A stretch of 64,000 bases of DNA from an uncultured Clostridia bacterium (GTDB lineage Bacteria > Bacillota > Clostridia > Christensenellales > UBA1242): positions 2,642 through 66,641 of the forward strand of contig CALWEL010000006.1 in the NCBI GenBank assembly GCA_944377305.1, read 5' to 3'. The translations under genes and the position numbers were made by a program. Positions within the stretch are counted from its first letter, which is position 1. Every line of letters begins with the position of its first letter. Of the stretch, positions 1,497 to 49,175 are shown one piece after another. The notes under the pieces were generated by a model, which made no database searches, was not told the origin of the DNA, and saw nothing but the letters and a program-made list of their open reading frames with translations.

Positions 1497-1841
1497 CTAG
1501 GCAGTTATCCCTAAGCTGATCATAATCGCAATATCAACTTTTTGCATAGTGATATTATCTATCGTGCATACTTTTTCTTTCAATCTTCTCTTGTCTAATG
1601 TCCTTATTTGTTCTAATAAAACCACGCTATCTTTCTCCAACCCGTATTCTTTTCCCAATTCTATATGCGTAGGAAGTTTTGCCTTGCTTAGCTGACTAGT
1701 AATAGCTGCAATGATGACTGTAGGGCTATATCTATTGCCGACATCATTTTGCACGACCAAAACTGGACGTACTCCGCCCTGCTCGCTTCCGACAACCGGA
1801 CTTAGATCAGCATAATAAACATCTCCCCGATTAACTTCCAT
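1497..1841 (-). CDS. mazF: Type II toxin, MazF/PemK (EndoA-like) endoribonuclease
   Basis: 114 aa. [29 protein letters not shown]...[10 protein letters not shown] is the typical MazF/PemK signature. The start overlaps the stop of the upstream ORF at 1841. Confidence 0.85.
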
Positions 1842-5131: not shown

Positions 5132-5157
5132 TGAAAAAATCCACAAAATTGTGGATT
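5132..5157 (-). terminator. Intrinsic terminator of the TasA-like gene
   Basis: AATCCAC..GTGGATT hairpin overlaps the stop codon and is followed by a T-run on the minus strand. Confidence 0.6.
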
Positions 5158-5857
5158 AAATATTGATTTTCCCTTCATACGCCTTATATATTGCACTCAT
5201 AATCTCTTGACATCTATCGTCTAGACTGTCTTCGCTTGAAAAATTGAAAGTACCAGCACCAATTGCAAAAGCTTGAAACAAAAAACTTATTTGCATATTT
5301 TGAAATTCATTACCCCAACTACTAGGTATTGATAAGGCATTCTCCTCAATGACTGTAATATACTCATTTGTTTCAGTGGCAAGTCGTGCTGTCTTGGTAA
5401 TTAAACACCTATATCTCACCTCTTCACAATCCCCATTGGATGTTACAAACAAATAATCATACCAAATGCTATCCTCATCCAAGCCAATGTTGATCAATGG
5501 CTTCGTATCGTCATAATTTTCTAGAGGCTCCCCTGTATCAATATCAGAGGCATTAACCTTGTATATTATAGAGAGATAGATAGGCGTGTTAGATTCATTG
5601 ACCACTATCAACGGAGTGTTCTCTAGAGGTTGACCAGGTACAAATACACCATTAGACACCAAAATTTCACTCGAAGCGCTCGCTCCTTCTCCTGCTTGCA
5701 AACTGATATTAAGATTCGCCATCACGATTCTTCCTGATACTTTACTAGTAGTAGTACTATAATAGGCATATACTCCACCAAAACAAGCAGTCAATAACAA
5801 TAATATAGATAATATAATAATAGCGATTGTTTGTCCGCTTAATCGTTTTTTTACCAT
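5156..5857 (-). CDS. TasA/camelysin-like secreted protein with a SipW-dependent-type signal peptide
   Basis: N-terminus KKRLS..hydrophobic..FGGVYAYYSTTT, then G-x-I/L and VPGQ. This matches the SipW-cognate signal peptide pattern (GGTxAxF/Y) of the TasA/CalY family. Confidence 0.65.
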   Translation of the reverse strand: MVKKRLSGQTIAIIILSILLLLTACFGGVYAYYSTTTSKVSGRIVMANLNISLQAGEGASASSEILVSNGVFVPGQPLENTPLIVVNESNTPIYLSIIYKVNASDIDTGEPLENYDDTKPLINIGLDEDSIWYDYLFVTSNGDCEEVRYRCLITKTARLATETNEYITVIEENALSIPSSWGNEFQNMQISFLFQAFAIGAGTFNFSSEDSLDDRCQEIMSAIYKAYEGKINI

Positions 5858-6054
5858 ATATACCCCTGTTCAGTAATAATTGTATATAATTATGCCTTAA
5901 TTGTCAAATAAAACTAAAAAAATTTAATAAATATTACTTCAATATTAAATTTGGTAATTATTCAATTTTTTCATCAATTTATGCTTCATTTAATTTATGA
6001 TATAATTAATGTATAGATTATTCTAAATATAATTTGTAGTAAAATTTCATCATA

Positions 6055-6099
6055 ATTTTGTACAAAATATTTGATTTTTGTAAAATAATGTTTTATAAT
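6055..6099 (+). promoter_or_regulatory. GTAC-palindrome operator module plus promoter (TTGATT-17-TATAAT)
   Basis: Perfect palindrome ATTTTGTACAAAAT at 6055-6068. -35 TTGATT at 6071-6076. Degenerate second box ATTTTTGTAAAAT lies in the spacer. -10 TATAAT at 6094-6099. ATG at 6106, 6 nt after the -10. Confidence 0.5.
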
Positions 6100-6105
6100 T
6101 TTTTT

Positions 6106-6465
6106 ATGCTAAGTGATTTTACCAAAATGCCTATTGATTTGCTTACCAATAAAGTAAAAGTTTGCATTTCAACTTTAGGAATGAATGAAAGATACAACTC
6201 ATTTGAATATTTGACTATGATCCTTGTATATATGTTGAAAAATGATACAGATAGTATCGAAGCTTTTCGCACCGCACTATCGCTTGTAGAAAAAAGATTT
6301 AATATAGGTGAGCGCACAATATGTTATGGAATCAATAAATTATTCAAAATGTGCAACACAGACCTAATAAAATCACGTGTACAATACCAACTTTCAAACA
6401 ACAGTACATTAAACAAAATCAGAGTGATCAAAGCATATATTTTGACCACTAAGCAATATCATTAA
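6106..6465 (+). CDS. Stand-alone Spo0A C-terminal (DNA-binding) domain-like protein
   Basis: ISTLGMNERYNSFEYLTMIL...VEKRFNIGERTICYGINKLF resembles the Spo0A_C helix pattern (IGVP.H.KGY.YL; ..RVERAIRHAI). The start is uncertain (6088, 6106 or 6127); 6106 fits a leaderless transcript. Confidence 0.55.
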   Translation: MLSDFTKMPIDLLTNKVKVCISTLGMNERYNSFEYLTMILVYMLKNDTDSIEAFRTALSLVEKRFNIGERTICYGINKLFKMCNTDLIKSRVQYQLSNNSTLNKIRVIKAYILTTKQYH

Positions 6466-6811
6466 CTAAATAATTTTTAATTATATATATAAATTCGCAA
6501 CAGCTAGGTTTTTCATCCCTTAGCCAAAATTTTGCGAGTTTATTTTTTAATCTATAATCCCACAAAACATTGATAATATTGCGTATGTCTCGTTCAATAG
6601 TACAATCATTTTTATTATATTTTTTTGCAAGCATTGGATACACTTCACGCGAAAAAGATCGTACCACTTTTGATTCATTTATCAATTGATCCAAAATATC
6701 TACCAGAAAATAATACCCCGTATACTGTTCGGTAATTCCTAATTCTCTCATTTTGCCCATAACATAATAATTGTGTACCACAATATCCTCATATTTTATT
6801 GTTTTTTTCAT
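6449..6811 (-). CDS. Stand-alone Spo0A C-terminal (DNA-binding) domain-like protein
   Basis: 120 aa. LGITEQYTGYYFLVDIL...VYPMLAKKYNKNDCTIERDIRNIINVLW...EKPSCCEFIYIIKNYL parallels B. subtilis Spo0A_C. SD is AGGGGAG. The 3' end overlaps the convergent paralogue by 17 nt. Confidence 0.7.
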   Translation of the reverse strand: MKKTIKYEDIVVHNYYVMGKMRELGITEQYTGYYFLVDILDQLINESKVVRSFSREVYPMLAKKYNKNDCTIERDIRNIINVLWDYRLKNKLAKFWLRDEKPSCCEFIYIIKNYLVNDIA

Positions 6812-6843
6812 TTTACTCCCCTTGCTTTTGCCCGTACTTACTT

Positions 6844-6910
6844 AAAATATCACTATTTCTTCTTCAAGTCAAATATTTTTGTACAAAAATAAAGGATTTT
6901 GTACAAAAAT
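6844..6910 (-). promoter_or_regulatory. Two GTAC-palindrome boxes upstream of a TTGACT-17-TATTTT promoter
   Basis: ATTTTTGTACAAAAAT (6875-6890, perfect 16-nt palindrome) and ATTTTGTACAAAAAT (6896-6910), centres 20 bp apart. -35 TTGACT at 6872..6867 and -10 TATTTT at 6849..6844, minus strand. Confidence 0.5.
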
Positions 6911-7004
6911 ATTTAATAATGTTAATTTAATAAAAAATCTCTCATTATGATATGAATTGGTACATACAAATGAGAGAACATATTGATTTTTATTAAACTT
7001 ATAA

Positions 7005-9158
7005 TTAATCTATTCCTTTCATTGTAAGAGATATACGTTTTTTCTGCAAGTCGACTGAAAGGACTTTTACTTTTACTTTTTGACCAACGGTCAACACCTC
7101 GCTAGGATGAGAAATGTATGAATTGCTGATTTGAGAGATGTGAACCAAGCCATCTTGATGGACTCCGATATCTACGAATGCTCCGAAATCAATGACATTT
7201 CTAACCACTCCATCTAGAACCATATCTGGCTTCAGGTCTTCCATAGATAAAATATCACTTCTAAGTTCTGGAAGAGGCATATTCTCACGAATATCACGAC
7301 CTGGTTTCAATAATTCTGCTACAATATCTTTTAGCGTAGGTACACCGACTCCGATTTCCTCCGCCACCCGACTTTCTCCTTTGTTTTCAATCAGGGATGG
7401 CAAAAGTGTCAATCCACCCTCTTTGATTTGAGAATCGGTGAGATTAAATATTTTCAACAATTTTTCCACAGCCTCATAGCTCTCTGGATGCACAGCGGTG
7501 TTGTCCAAAATATTATCTCCATCCGTAATTCGCAAGAATCCTGCACATTGTTCGTATGCCTTTGGCCCCATTTTCTTCACTTTCATCAATTCATTCCTAT
7601 TGTTGATATGCTTTACTTGCGAGCGATAATCAACAATATTTTCAGCTAAACTGCCTGATATTCCAGACACATACGAAAGCAAGCTGACGGACGCTGTGTT
7701 CAAGTCTACACCAACACTATTGACGCAGTCTTCTACCGTATTGTTGAGCACTTCTGTCAATCTATTTTGTGGCATATCGTGCTGATATTGCCCCACACCT
7801 ATTGACTTCACATCAATTTTGATGAGTTCGGCAAGCGGATCTTGCAATCTTCGCGCAATAGACACCGCGCTACGCAAGTTTACATCATAATCTGGAAATT
7901 CCTTTGCCGCCAACTTTGACGCACTATAAACGGACGCTCCCGCTTCGTTCACCATTGCATAGCTTACTTTCCTTGGACAAGTTTTGATCAAATCTGCCAC
8001 CAATATTTCACTTTCCTTGCTGGCAGTTCCATTGCCTATCGCTATGATATCTACATTGTTTTTCACTATCATATCTGTGAGTTTTTTCTTCGCTTCTTCC
8101 ACCTTGTTTTGTGGCGGAGTAGGATAAACTACTGCCGTATCTAGCACATCACCTTTTTGGTCTATCACCGCAATCTTGCATCCATTGTAATATCCTGGAT
8201 CGTAACCCATAATCACATTATTTTTCAACGGAGCTTGCAACAAAAGTGGTTTCAAATTCAATTCAAACATCTTAATTGCTTGCTCATTTGCCCTATCTGT
8301 CAGCGCCGTCCTACACTCTCGCTCAAGTGATGGGAACAACAATCTATCATAACTATCCAATATGGTTTCATCCATAATTTCATTTGTATATTCGCAAGCC
8401 TTTTTGTATACTTTCTCTATTTCAGTTATGGTGAGTTTTGGATTGATTTCAACACTGACTTTCAAACATTTTTCTTTTTCTCCACGATTGAGTGCTAATA
8501 TCCTATGACTTGGAATTTTCGCCACTTCGCCTGAAAAATCTTTGTAATTTTCATAGGTCTTGTTTTCGTCCGCCGTCTCATCCCAAACAGCTTTGATTTG
8601 CGCTTTCTTTGCAATTATTTCACGCAAAGTTTTCCTTAAATTTGCATCATCACTTATTCGCTCTGCAATAATATCCTTCGCGCCTGCAAGCGCTTCTTCT
8701 GCCGACTTCACGCCCTTTTCTTCGTCAACATATTCACTAGCGTATTCAAGCGCGGGTTTATTGAGATCTTGCGCCATAATGATATCTGCCAATGGCTCCA
8801 ATCCCTTTGCTATAGCAACTGTGGCACGCGTCTTTCTCTTTGGCTTGTATGGTCTATATATATCTTCCACTTCTGTCAGCGTGAGTGCATCGGCTAATGC
8901 CTTTTCAATCTCTGGCGTCCATTTTTCTTGCTCACGGATGACTTTTTCCACTTTTTCTTTTTCTTTGTTCAAATTGCGTAAATAGTTTAACCTATCCGCA
9001 AAATCGCGCAATACCTGATCATCACACGCTCCGTGCATCTCTTTCCTATAGCGCGCGATGAAAGGTATAGTGTTGCCTTCGTCTATCAAATTGATAATGT
9101 TCTCTGCATAGACTTCTTTTAGATTAAATTCGTATGCTAATTGTTTTTGTAATTCCAT
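7005..9158 (-). CDS. tex: Tex-like transcription accessory protein (YqgF/HHH/S1 domains)
   Basis: 717 aa. N-terminal TIPFIARYRKE motif and a C-terminal S1 domain (GVVRNVIDFGAFVDIG). Confidence 0.9.
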   Translation of the reverse strand: MELQKQLAYEFNLKEVYAENIINLIDEGNTIPFIARYRKEMHGACDDQVLRDFADRLNYLRNLNKEKEKVEKVIREQEKWTPEIEKALADALTLTEVEDIYRPYKPKRKTRATVAIAKGLEPLADIIMAQDLNKPALEYASEYVDEEKGVKSAEEALAGAKDIIAERISDDANLRKTLREIIAKKAQIKAVWDETADENKTYENYKDFSGEVAKIPSHRILALNRGEKEKCLKVSVEINPKLTITEIEKVYKKACEYTNEIMDETILDSYDRLLFPSLERECRTALTDRANEQAIKMFELNLKPLLLQAPLKNNVIMGYDPGYYNGCKIAVIDQKGDVLDTAVVYPTPPQNKVEEAKKKLTDMIVKNNVDIIAIGNGTASKESEILVADLIKTCPRKVSYAMVNEAGASVYSASKLAAKEFPDYDVNLRSAVSIARRLQDPLAELIKIDVKSIGVGQYQHDMPQNRLTEVLNNTVEDCVNSVGVDLNTASVSLLSYVSGISGSLAENIVDYRSQVKHINNRNELMKVKKMGPKAYEQCAGFLRITDGDNILDNTAVHPESYEAVEKLLKIFNLTDSQIKEGGLTLLPSLIENKGESRVAEEIGVGVPTLKDIVAELLKPGRDIRENMPLPELRSDILSMEDLKPDMVLDGVVRNVIDFGAFVDIGVHQDGLVHISQISNSYISHPSEVLTVGQKVKVKVLSVDLQKKRISLTMKGID

Positions 9159-29935: not shown

Positions 29936-29966
29936 GTATGAAAAAACTCGCATTAGCGAGTTTTTA
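29936..29966 (-). terminator. Intrinsic terminator of the second TasA-like gene
   Basis: AAAAACTCGC-ATTA-GCGAGTTTTT hairpin overlaps the stop codon, with a T-run on the minus strand. Confidence 0.7.
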
Positions 29967-30710
29967 TCCTTGGTCAGGGTCAGGACTATGTGGGAACAAT
30001 AATTTAGCGATTCCGTTAACTGTAGCATCAGTAGCAGTATCACTAGCACTAGCGTCTCCACCATCGTTCCAGTTTTTTGATTGTACTGATCTAGCCTCAA
30101 TAGTAATATTGAGTGTAGCACCCATCAATTTACTATCACTGATGTAATCTGCGCTACCATCTGCTTTAGTTTGATCCCAATTGTCGCCCCCTTTGAAAAT
30201 CAATGCAGCATCAGTGATTTTGATCGTTTGACCTGTAGCTACAGCTGTAGGAGTGGTAGTAGCTGCCAATACAAATACATTTGTATAGTTTTCGTCGGTA
30301 CCTGCTACCCATTTAGATCCTGTGGTTGGCTCAGTTGCTAACAATCCAATTGCAGATGCCAGTGATGTACCAGCCAAATCCAATTCTTCATCATTAGCAT
30401 CAGTCGCTTTAATCGTTACTTTAATTGCTATGTACGAATCTGTACCAACAGATGTCGTAGTCAAAGTCAAAGGACCAGTGGTCAATGCATCACCCGGAAC
30501 TACGTTTGTTAATCCCGTTTCGAAAGTTGCGTCATCATTAGCTTCCAACTTGATACTACCAGTGGTAAACTCACCAGTAGATTTCTTAGTAGCAGTAGCA
30601 GTAAAGTAAGCGTAAGTGCCACCGAAGGCAAGCATAGCGACCATAACAACTGCCATTATAATGATGGCAAAAGTTGACTTGGACATTTTCTTTTTCTTAG
30701 TTTTTGTCAT
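29964..30710 (-). CDS. TasA/camelysin-like secreted protein with a SipW-dependent-type signal peptide
   Basis: KKKKMSKSTFAIIIMAVVMVAMLAFGGTYAYFTATAT..TGSIKL..VVPGD matches the SipW-cognate signal and the TasA/CalY N-terminal pattern. Thr/Ala/Gly-rich, and visibly G+C-richer than its neighbours. Confidence 0.7.
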   Translation of the reverse strand: MTKTKKKKMSKSTFAIIIMAVVMVAMLAFGGTYAYFTATATKKSTGEFTTGSIKLEANDDATFETGLTNVVPGDALTTGPLTLTTTSVGTDSYIAIKVTIKATDANDEELDLAGTSLASAIGLLATEPTTGSKWVAGTDENYTNVFVLAATTTPTAVATGQTIKITDAALIFKGGDNWDQTKADGSADYISDSKLMGATLNITIEARSVQSKNWNDGGDASASDTATDATVNGIAKLLFPHSPDPDQG

Positions 30711-36371: not shown

Positions 36372-36797
36372 CTAAACTTTTTTGTAATTTGGAATTAAAT
36401 GCTTATATTTATTTACAAAATTAAAGGCGTCAAAAATCGCTTTTTCTTTGTTCGGAGAAGCTAAAATTGCTATCATTTTTTCTATAAAATTAATACCATC
36501 AAATTTTACACAACTCAAATAATAGGGTGCAATATTGATTTTTATGTCTAAGATTCGAACAATCACCTCTGCTGTAAGAGTTGAAAAAATACTAAAAAAT
36601 TCATTTCTATAATTGTATGTACATTTTATCCCCAAGACTTTGCATAGTTTCGCTACACATATTTCTTTGATCATCTCCTCCTTCGTCTTACTGAACAAAA
36701 TAGGTTTTTCTATGTTCATAAACTGGCAAACTTTATCTACAATCTCCCTAATCGATCGTGTATTATTTCTATCTATTTCACAAATTACATTATTCAT
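36372..36797 (-). CDS. Hypothetical 141-aa protein under a GTAC-box promoter
   Basis: The ATG lies 8 nt after a TATATT -10 element, which is leaderless geometry. No family recognised. Confidence 0.5.
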   Translation of the reverse strand: MNNVICEIDRNNTRSIREIVDKVCQFMNIEKPILFSKTKEEMIKEICVAKLCKVLGIKCTYNYRNEFFSIFSTLTAEVIVRILDIKINIAPYYLSCVKFDGINFIEKMIAILASPNKEKAIFDAFNFVNKYKHLIPNYKKV

Positions 36798-36805
36798 ACT
36801 TTTTA

Positions 36806-36852
36806 AATATAAAATAATTTTGTACAGAAGTCAAATAATTTTGTACAAAAAT
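36806..36852 (-). promoter_or_regulatory. GTAC-palindrome operator module plus promoter (TTGACT-17-TATATT)
   Basis: On the minus strand: AATTTTGTACAAAAAT (GTAC at 36843-36846), 8 nt, -35 TTGACT at 36834..36829, a second box TTCTGTACAAAAT inside the spacer (GTAC at 36822-36825), and -10 TATATT at 36811..36806. Confidence 0.5.
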
Positions 36853-46055: not shown

Positions 46056-46405
46056 GGGGATGAATTAGTTTCGACTGATATAAACCTAAATTATACGCAC
46101 GTCGTGTGGTGGCACGCAAAATACACGGTTCGTTAAGACGAATTAAAATAAACGCAAACCAAAATAAATTAGCTTACGCTGCTTAAGCGTGGCCGTCAGT
46201 TTAGCGGTACCGATACGTTAAAATCTGACGTCAGATATCGGTGAACTTCATCATGCATTTCCTAGTGTATGATGAGGACAATTAGGATAGCAATCCTTCA
46301 GTGTCAATGTTAATGAATGATTGTGAATATAGTCATTGACTAAACGTGTAGTGTATGGTTTACATTTATGTTAGGACACGAGTGCAACTCTCGTCATCTC
46401 CACCA
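46056..46405 (+). ncRNA. ssrA: tmRNA (transfer-messenger RNA)
   Basis: 5' GGGGAUG pairs with 3' CAUCUCC-ACCA and includes a G3:U pair. GUUUCGAC at the 5' side. T-arm GGACACGAGUGCAACUCUCGUC. Tag ORF GCA AAC CAA AAT AAA TTA GCT TAC GCT GCT TAA (46154-46186) encodes ANQNKLAYAA. Confidence 0.92.
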
Positions 46406-48734: not shown

Positions 48735-49175
48735 TTATTGATTTCTTTTCTGCCTATCCAACTCTCTTTTCTTTATAGTTTCCCTTTTATCATACAACTT
48801 TTTCCCACGCGCGACTGCAATTTCGACTTTCAAATTGCTACCCACAAAATATGCTTTCGTTGGAACAAGAGTAAGGTGATCCGCCTCAATCTTTTTTTTG
48901 ATCTTTTCTATCTCTTGCTTATGCAATAAAAGTTTTCTATCTCTTTTTGTCGTCTCGTTGTGCCTTGTAGAATCAAAAGAATTTGCATATTCTTTAATAT
49001 AACTATTCCTTAAAAAACATTCATCATTTTTCACAAACCCATAGCAGTCATTAATCGAAAAATGACCAAGCCTAATTGACTTGATCTCGTCACCCGTCAA
49101 CATTATCCCAGCTTCATATTTATCCAGTAGTTCATATTCAAATTTTGCTTTTCTATTTTCTGCAACAATTTTCAT
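48735..49175 (-). CDS. smpB: SsrA-binding protein SmpB
   Basis: IAENRKAKFEYELLDKYEAGIMLTGDEIKSIR and a C-terminal KRE..R basic tail. Canonical SmpB. Confidence 0.92.
   Translation of the reverse strand: MKIVAENRKAKFEYELLDKYEAGIMLTGDEIKSIRLGHFSINDCYGFVKNDECFLRNSYIKEYANSFDSTRHNETTKRDRKLLLHKQEIEKIKKKIEADHLTLVPTKAYFVGSNLKVEIAVARGKKLYDKRETIKKRELDRQKRNQ

Follow-up and report, generated by a model that had tools for sequence, protein, structure and literature searches.

Spo0A of Bacillus and Clostridium couples a receiver domain (REC) to the DNA-binding effector domain Spo0A_C, binds the 0A box TGTCGAA, and is autoregulated through 0A boxes. It is the textbook phosphorelay-gated master regulator, and proteins that retain only its effector domain raise the question of what that domain does once evolution removes phosphorylation. 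We examined a locus of this kind in a 64,000-nucleotide stretch of DNA (hereafter, the window; 31.7% guanine plus cytosine, GC) from an uncultured Clostridia bacterium of the Christensenellales (contig CALWEL010000006.1 of assembly GCA_944377305.1, positions 2,642 to 66,641). A first-pass annotation, made from the letters of the window alone, had described two convergent open reading frames (ORFs) there as a pair of stand-alone Spo0A_C-like regulators with an operator of their own, lying next to a TasA-like gene. The two are ORF1 (6106-6465, plus strand, 119 aa) and ORF2 (6449-6811, minus strand, 120 aa), and the promoters of both carry the 12-bp palindrome TTTTGTACAAAA. As detailed below, ORF2 and the palindrome, which is fixed in its placement, occur together in ~30 species, joined in 14 of 31 loci by ORF1, and point to a small self-controlled regulatory circuit.

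ORF2 and its remote paralogue ORF1

ORF2 matched the Pfam profile PF08769 (Spo0A_C) with an E-value of 7.6e-21 and a score of 74.5 bits (cut-off 25), its residues 20-115 covering profile positions 4-104 of 104, and a profile of its family matched the Spo0A C-domain structures 1lq1 and 1fc3 at E 2e-14. TIGR02875 matched over its C-terminal part only and scored 49.6 bits against a cut-off of 200; therefore, ORF2 is not an equivalog of full-length Spo0A. A receiver domain is missing. The protein is just 120 aa long, its Spo0A_C domain begins near residue 20, and the 190-bp spacer upstream of the gene is filled by the Shine-Dalgarno-like sequence AAGGGGAG ahead of the ATG, the promoter, and the terminator of the neighboring gene, tex. 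Similarly, ~20 residues precede the domain in 31/31 orthologues (~120 aa, with starts inferred by alignment). ORF2 is unambiguously a Spo0A_C protein without a receiver.

The recognition helix of ORF2 (C-T-I-E-R-D-I-R-N-I-I-N-V-L-W) conserves the signature of the corresponding helix in Spo0A (S-R-V-E-R-A-I-R-H-A-I-E-V-A-W). Residues T71, E73, R74, I76, R77, and W84 were invariant among 22 aligned proteins of the ORF2 family. In the genome loci, a T[IV]ER[DN]IR core was present in 28 of 31 (the other three have S or I at the T position), and E-R-x-I-R was found in every one. These loci came from a scan limited to one genome per species, which recovered ORF2 orthologues (46-91% identity) in 30 species-level genomes, all of them metagenome-assembled genomes (MAGs) of uncultured Clostridia from the gut of chicken, rabbit, sheep, and human, some of them assigned to Candidatus Onthoplasma or labelled Christensenella. 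The gene order tex, ORF2, (ORF1), a 233-aa gene, spmA, spmB, arsP was kept to at least 61% identity. No relatives of the ORF2 family were found in IMG/VR phage contigs.

ORF1, present in 14 of the 31 loci, is a different case. It had no match in Pfam or NCBIfam at E<=1, so that of the two predicted Spo0A_C-like proteins only ORF2 was recognized by the Pfam profile, and the relationship of ORF1 to the family emerged at the profile level. BLASTP aligned ORF1 with ORF2 at 28% identity over 50 aa (E 3e-4). An ORF1 family profile built with 12 orthologues from related loci aligned to the ORF2 family profile over 100 columns with an hhalign probability of 96.3% (E 1.5e-9), and reciprocal hidden Markov model matches of the two families to the other ORF in the window gave 1.1e-7 and 3.9e-9. 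Judged by these alignments, ORF1 is a true but very remote paralogue of ORF2. The ORF1 profile found nothing below E 0.6 among PDB sequences. An AlphaFold2 model of ORF1, computed from a shallow alignment, was all-helical with a predicted local distance difference test (pLDDT) score of 69.7, and its highest-scoring PDB match by template modeling (TM) score was the Spo0A effector domain 1fc3_A (TM 0.54), at a non-significant E of 2.1. Contrary to the first-pass view that the two regulators are of the same kind, the T-x-E-R-x-I-R signature is replaced in ORF1 by variable residues: the Spo0A contact residues E-R-x-x-R align with C-Y-G-I-N, and these positions differ from one to another of the 12 partner sequences. 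Probably, the fold has been retained in ORF1 and the DNA reading head has not. Since it lacks the recognition-helix contact residues, ORF1 would more probably be a modulator than a binder of the same operator.

The palindrome and its place in promoters

The palindromes that drew attention to this locus lie where they had been reported, i.e., ATTTTGTACAAAAT at 6055-6068, ATTTTTGTACAAAAAT at 6875-6890, and ATTTTGTACAAAAAT at 6896-6910, the latter two being spaced 20 bp from center to center. The exact 12-mer TTTTGTACAAAA occurs four times in the window, starting at 6056, 6877, 6897, and 36839. ORF2 has a sigma-A-type promoter at 6844..6872 on the minus strand (TTGACT, 17 nt, TG-n-TATTTT) with a predicted 5' untranslated region of ~26 nt. 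Assuming that transcription starts 7 nt past the -10 box, its proximal putative operator (6877-6888, an exact copy) is centered near -45.5 and its distal one (6897-6908), 20 bp away, near -65.5. The sigma-A-type promoter of ORF1 (6071..6099, plus strand; TTGATT, 17 nt, TATAAT) stops 6 nt short of the ATG at 6106 and has a single exact copy (6056-6067) as its putative operator, centered near -44.5. The fourth copy (36839-36850) is centered near -45.5 upstream of a gene for a 141-aa protein. It is accompanied, 21 bp away, by the one-mismatch palindrome TTTTGTACAGAA (36818-36829), which lies in the -35/-10 spacer of that promoter near -24.5. This second pair was absent from the first-pass annotation.

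To judge these numbers against chance, copies with up to one mismatch were counted across the whole window; five were present versus 1.41 expected, and five were reached in 0/100 shuffles. With a background modeled as a first-order Markov chain on the intergenic DNA of the window itself (12.2 kb, 22% GC), four exact copies were seen versus 0.018 expected, and five copies with up to one mismatch versus 0.47 expected, a count reached in 0/500 simulations. No copy was found in the 51.8 kb of coding DNA in the window, and the motif was confined to 3 of ~50 intergenic regions. The palindrome is thus far more frequent than AT-rich intergenic DNA of this window would produce by itself, and the similar background frequency that would have refuted the first-pass proposal was not observed.

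Comparison among species was far more telling than the single sequence. In 31/31 loci, the ORF2 promoter consists of the proximal motif, a gap of 3-4 nt, TTGAC(T/A), a spacer of 17-18 nt, and a -10 box, in many cases with a TG extension. Exact copies of the proximal motif were present in 27 of these, and its placement is fixed in all 31 despite divergence of the protein to 46% identity. Most loci have the distal motif 8-9 nt upstream of the proximal one; it has degenerated in some (L015, L017) and cannot be recognized in L020. Within ~6 kb around each orthologue, the motif was almost confined to these promoters. The promoter of ORF1 follows the same plan: in 11 of the 14 loci that carry the gene, the motif or a one-mismatch variant lies 3-4 nt upstream of its -35 box (TTGATT), which is followed by 17 nt and a TATAAT-like -10 box, with no Shine-Dalgarno sequence. 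The -10 box is 6-8 nt ahead of an in-frame ATG or GTG in 13/14 loci (GTG in two species). Since the -10 box is so close to the start codon and a Shine-Dalgarno sequence is missing, the ORF1 mRNA is predicted to be leaderless, and its translation would be leaderless as well. Taken together, these comparisons support the palindrome as a specific element tied to these promoters.

The sequence of the palindrome is also closer to the 0A box than had been thought. The extended 0A box consensus of the B. subtilis literature is TTTGTCGAAAA. The motif, read directly as TTTGTACAAAA, agrees with it at 9/11 positions, the two central bases being different; by sequence, the 12-bp palindrome would be a variant of the 0A box. 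The first-pass annotation was therefore right that it differs from the classical box, but overstated the distance. The window holds five TGTCGAA/TTCGACA boxes, none of them near the ORF1/ORF2 locus, and Rfam and tRNA scans gave no match within this locus.

Outside the ORF1/ORF2 locus, the palindrome fronts the 141-aa gene (36372-36797, minus strand), whose promoter reads TTGACT, 17 nt, TATATT, then 8 nt to the ATG. Its layout (motif at -45.5, TTGACW, second motif in the spacer at -24.5, -10 box, and usually a leaderless start) was kept in the window and in at least seven other species-level loci, with protein identity down to 25%. The exact motif at -45.5 was kept in L079, L113, L277, L278, L280, and L282, and the position of the spacer motif was also kept in homologous 141-aa loci. 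The 141-aa family comprises 44 clusters at 50% identity, and the protein had no match in Pfam or the PDB. Considered as a third Spo0A_C paralogue, it was ruled out by this lack of matches and by hhalign probabilities of 0.1-0.4%. The gene always lies behind a gene of 113-118 aa (window; L079, L113, L277-L282). The palindrome is consequently not the private operator of the ORF1/ORF2 pair that had been proposed, since it also precedes this unrelated gene and, as shown below, the full-length spo0A of another lineage.

The proximal copy spans about -51 to -40, a position at which the motif might instead serve as an intrinsic, UP-element-like contact for the C-terminal domain of the RNA polymerase alpha subunit, with no regulator involved. 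The UP-element consensus core is TTTT-N3-AAA at about -50 to -41; the T4-N4-A4 layout of the motif resembles it, and the core promoters downstream are strong sigma-A types. However, UP elements do not require the GTAC core that is invariant here, the copies at -65.5 and -24.5 (in the spacer) are outside the UP position, and a motif restricted to so few intergenic regions of the window is no general promoter feature. Of the explanations that we weighed, this is the one we hold least probable.

The explanation that we favor, with about even confidence in the whole and from sequence comparison, is that ORF2 would be a phosphorylation-independent, Spo0A-type transcription factor, cut down to the DNA-binding effector domain, that acts on a 0A-box-like palindrome, autoregulates, and controls a small regulon. 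In the absence of a receiver, its activity would not be set by phosphorylation and would have to depend on the amount made. TTTTGTACAAAA, placed immediately ahead of the -35 box in sigma-A-type promoters, would be its operator, and ORF2 would control its own promoter and those of ORF1 and the 141-aa gene. Since the upstream sites abut the -35 box (-45.5/-65.5 for ORF2; -44.5 for ORF1), they would fit activation, as at Spo0A-activated sigma-A promoters, while the spacer site of the 141-aa promoter (-24.5) would fit repression. ORF1, made from its leaderless mRNA, would most likely modulate ORF2 or RNA polymerase instead of binding the operator. Considering that the motif is tied to Spo0A-family genes, resembles the 0A box, and abuts the -35 box, binding by a Spo0A-family protein would be the simplest account of the palindrome.

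The motif in other lineages and competing explanations

A metagenome scan for the double motif also matched contigs of ~50-60% GC that carry a full-length spo0A. This gene (L283:5856-6756; also L052, L057, L103, L074, L284, L285) is located between cysK and ftsK/spoIIIE and encodes 251 aa with Response_reg and Spo0A_C domains. One member of the cluster is annotated as Candidatus Gallimonas intestinigallinarum, and the Gallimonas-type Spo0A was listed in 508 index blocks. Its promoter has three copies of TTTTGTACAAAA at exactly 21-bp spacing, followed by TTTACA-17-TATAAT; all three were exact in 5/6 loci examined, with no further copies in 12.7 kb. The array is preceded, 24 bp upstream, by a canonical TGTCGAA box. 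The protein has a canonical effector domain, the recognition helix of which, SKVERAIRHAIEVAW, is almost identical to that of B. subtilis. Its receiver is degenerate; compared with B. subtilis Spo0A, DD is changed to ES, the phospho-acceptor D56 to S, and T84 to G. Thus, across two lineages of very different GC content (~30% and ~50-60%), the motif follows genes of the Spo0A family. As far as the residues tell, the Spo0A-family protein appears unable to receive a phosphoryl group in either lineage. In two distant orthologues of the ORF1/ORF2 locus, a canonical 0A box, TTTGTCGAAAT, lies tens of bp upstream of the palindrome pair (L016, ~810-830; L026, ~2800-2830), a position that resembles that of the box in the Gallimonas-type locus.

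Only the low-GC and the Gallimonas-type rows of the scan were judged relevant. Most of its 120 rows (L037-L156) were Bacteroidetes-like contigs of 40-50% GC with SusC-like proteins and were set aside as a separate use of the 12-mer. On these, TTTTGTACAAAA-N8-9-TTTTGTACAAAA occurs in intergenic DNA several times per contig (e.g., L037, L046, and L101 on one 183-kb contig), and the pairs are flanked by a T-run and an A-run that extend them to an inverted repeat of ~50 bp, apparently unrelated to Spo0A. A search of viral contigs for the motif with TTGAC was dominated by one phage family of ~55-59 kb, with an early region full of TGTACA operators. No Spo0A_C, ORF1-like, or 141-aa-like genes were found near the viral matches, which are thus uninformative for the ORF1/ORF2 system. 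In this family (~90 of loci L157-L276 from IMG/VR; 45-50% GC), the conserved early region, TTTTGTACAAAAgagTTGACTTGTACAGnnnnCTGTACTATAATACAG..., is packed with TGTAC(A) repeats around a consensus promoter, which look like an operator cluster for a phage repressor.

In another reading, the paired motifs would act as nucleic-acid structure, either as a hairpin of 12-20 bp that ends or stabilizes the upstream transcript (tex, or the 118-aa gene ahead of the 141-aa gene) or as a cruciform. On the Bacteroidetes-like contigs, the T- and A-runs lengthen the stem of the same pair. In the window, folding gave a perfect stem of 20 bp for 6855-6925 on the minus strand (-19.6 kcal/mol, z -6.5) and an energy of -15.4 kcal/mol for the pair ahead of the 141-aa gene, which has a U-rich tract behind it; the outer flanks co-vary in close relatives, from ATAT/ATAT in the window to ACAT/ATGT in L009. 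Conversely, the single motif of ORF1 cannot form such a structure (-5 kcal/mol, z -0.7) and yet is conserved in 11/14 loci; the proximal copy is nearly invariant, whereas the distal one decays without compensation in L015, L017, and L034; and every promoter keeps a fixed gap of 3-4 nt to the -35 box. The ORF2 pair is followed by a poor U-tract (UUGACUU), and the Gallimonas-type loci have three copies, with a separate GC-rich terminator for cysK. Moreover, tex (7005-9158) has a terminator of its own upstream of the pair: a terminator-like hairpin with U6 at 6931..6977 on the minus strand (-18.1 kcal/mol, z -4.0), with a comparable terminator between tex and the motifs in L004. Since this hairpin precedes the motif pair, the pair is not needed to terminate tex. 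We consider a purely structural role very unlikely.

A more serious competitor is that the palindrome is the operator of another regulator, such as a dimer of the GntR or Xre type or a canonical Spo0A encoded elsewhere, and that ORF2 and ORF1 are its targets and not its owners. The motif resembles GntR-family operators, which typically have a GT-Nx-AC core with AT-rich arms, and also the AraR site of B. subtilis, ATTTGTACGTACAAAT. Its perfect dyad symmetry would suit a symmetric dimer, TGTACA-type operators occur in the unrelated phage family, and the Gallimonas-type array is next to a canonical TGTCGAA box and a gene for a Spo0A with a canonical helix. However, no candidate regulator gene was linked to the motif in ~45 loci, and the only DNA-binding proteins that travel with it, in both the ~30% and the ~50-60% GC lineages, are of the Spo0A family. 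A separate factor would need to be conserved in both lineages with the same placement of its site. We regard this explanation as possible but doubtful.

Several observations weigh against ORF2 as the binder of the motif. On 0A boxes, Spo0A forms a tandem dimer arranged head to tail (structure 1LQ1); the candidate operator, in contrast, is a perfect palindrome. The core promoters are near consensus (TTGACW with an extended -10) and have no obvious need of an activator. Co-variation between the recognition helix and the motif is uninformative, since hardly any variation exists in either. Given the canonical helix and the TGTCGAA box of the Gallimonas-type locus, the palindrome there could belong to another factor, and the same 12-mer pair is found in unrelated contexts, i.e., the Bacteroidetes-like contigs and the phage with TGTACA operators.

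Convergent overlap, neighboring genes, and known systems

ORF1 and ORF2 share positions 6449-6465, confirming the convergent overlap of 17 nt described previously, and in all 14 loci that have both genes, ORF1 is convergent with ORF2 and overlaps its 3' end by 4-21 nt. The claim that no terminator lies between the genes holds literally, since overlapping genes leave no intergenic space, but terminator-like hairpins with U-runs sit within the 3' coding end of the opposite gene. On the ORF2 side, a 10-bp hairpin with a U-run (6450..6423, minus strand) falls within the ORF1 codons for NKIRVIKxYILTT. It recurs in most partner-bearing species, with a different stem sequence in L009, and is unclear in the distant L020 and L026. 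Its consensus is a hand-drawn structure, as RNAalifold returned none owing to alignment gaps; in it, 75.6% of cells were paired (36-49% in the slid controls), with double-sided changes at five pairs. On the ORF1 side, a hairpin with U6 (~6489-6550, plus strand; -15.6 kcal/mol, z -3.46) overlaps, in antisense, the CCEFI and LKNKL codons of ORF2. A hairpin with a run of at least five U was present here in 14/14 partner-bearing loci and was patchy in loci without ORF1; two of its pairs show compensatory changes, and its consensus energy is weak. If both hairpins terminate transcription, the two mRNAs are predicted to overlap in antisense by ~130-140 nt, which might allow mutual interference. Their position in conserved C-terminal codons makes a dual constraint by protein and RNA structure possible, and reciprocal terminators embedded in overlapping coding ends would be a compact example of such dual coding constraints.

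The 233-aa gene (5156-5857, minus strand) encodes a predicted membrane-anchored beta-sandwich protein, which had been called TasA-like. The protein reached PF12389 (Peptidase_M73) at E 0.25 and 11.6 bits (threshold 22.5) with its N-terminal 44 residues only, and the best match among 10 orthologues was E 0.004. It had no match in NCBIfam, its profile had none among PDB sequences, and none of its 95 homologues has a name or a Pfam domain. AlphaFold2 (pLDDT 77.9) modeled the protein as a beta-sandwich with a helix at its N terminus; in a Foldseek search of the PDB with this model, no match reached E<=0.001, and TasA was absent from the 50 matches listed. Elsewhere in the window, a 248-aa protein (29964-30710, minus strand) matched Peptidase_M73 above threshold (E 5e-8, 33.4 bits versus 22.5) and is a closer TasA-family candidate; no TTGTACAA site lies upstream of its gene. 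The 233-aa family aligned with this protein by hhalign (98.5%, E 2e-15) over the N-terminal ~100 residues only, comprising the signal anchor and first strands. The TasA link is therefore weak, a probable distant TasA/camelysin homology over that N-terminal part. The 233-aa gene is syntenic in many loci and neighbors ORF2 also in species without ORF1. It has its own near-consensus promoter (5907..5879; TTGACA, 17 nt, TACAAT), 150 bp from the motif and with no motif adjacent to it, and no evidence was found for the gene as a direct target. The window also contains a gene for a MazF/PemK-type toxin (1497-1841, minus strand; Pfam E 7e-37) and a tmRNA gene (46056-46405, plus strand; tag ANQNKLAYAA) ~2.3 kb from smpB (48735-49175).

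Set beside Spo0A itself, ORF2 is alike in its effector domain and the E-R-x-I-R core of its helix, and its candidate operator, with nine of 11 positions of the extended 0A box, is at the -35 region of sigma-A-type promoters that include its own. It differs in having no receiver and hence no phosphorelay input, in a site that is a GTAC-core palindrome spaced at 20-21 bp where Spo0A uses tandem 7-mers ~10 bp apart, and in lying between tex and spmAB, which is not a recognizable spo0A neighborhood. The Gallimonas-type Spo0A shares with it TTTTGTACAAAA upstream of the promoter, there as three tandem copies, and its receiver residues suggest that it, too, is probably phosphorylation-independent. 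Unlike ORF2, however, it keeps a receiver-like domain, a canonical helix, and a TGTCGAA box in a ~50-60% GC genome. The SinR/SinI pair of B. subtilis, beside tapA-sipW-tasA, combines a DNA-binding regulator of the Xre helix-turn-helix type with a small, related protein that does not bind DNA. ORF2, with the related ORF1 that lacks contact residues and an adjoining gene that is probably a distant relative of TasA, recalls it by analogy only, since the protein families are unrelated, the 233-aa gene has a promoter of its own free of the motif, and its TasA/camelysin homology is limited to the N-terminal part.

The nearest precedent comes from phages of the human gut, which carry receiver-less spo0A homologues truncated to the effector domain (Schwartz et al., 2023; PMC10294663) and expected to act without host phosphorylation signals (PMC10294663). 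ORF2 is likewise reduced to the DNA-binding effector domain; in contrast, its family is chromosomal, is syntenic across 30 species, and has no IMG/VR relative, and it has a conserved candidate operator, a degenerate paralogue, and a small putative regulon, none of which has been described for the phage genes. A domain-only Spo0A_C architecture is already implicit in Pfam. In the literature, we found only the gut-phage report (PMC10294663) on stand-alone Spo0A_C, no description of a chromosomal, syntenic receiver-less family, its palindromic operator, its convergent paralogue, or the Gallimonas-type pseudo-receiver Spo0A, and nothing linking Christensenellales to a receiver-less Spo0A; a search by motif sequence returned cloning primers only.

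In a wider reading, which we consider unlikely, one branch of Christensenellales-type gut Clostridia, with Candidatus Onthoplasma and perhaps Candidatus Gallimonas among them, would have released Spo0A from its dependence on phosphorylation. The receiver would have decayed in one lineage and disappeared in another, and control would have passed to transcription, with feedback through the palindromic operator and with an antagonist of the ORF1 type made from the convergent, antisense-overlapping, leaderless gene. If true, Spo0A would be switched in these bacteria by dosage and an anti-factor and not by a phosphorelay, and the small regulon may include cell-surface proteins. TTTTGTACAAAA offers a ready DNA probe, and its three natural layouts (-45/-65, -45 alone, and -45/-24) could separate activation from repression. 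The hosts are abundant, uncultured gut Clostridia, the sporulation capacity of which is now guessed from gene content, including matches to spo0A. A receiver-less or pseudo-receiver Spo0A would mislead such predictions.

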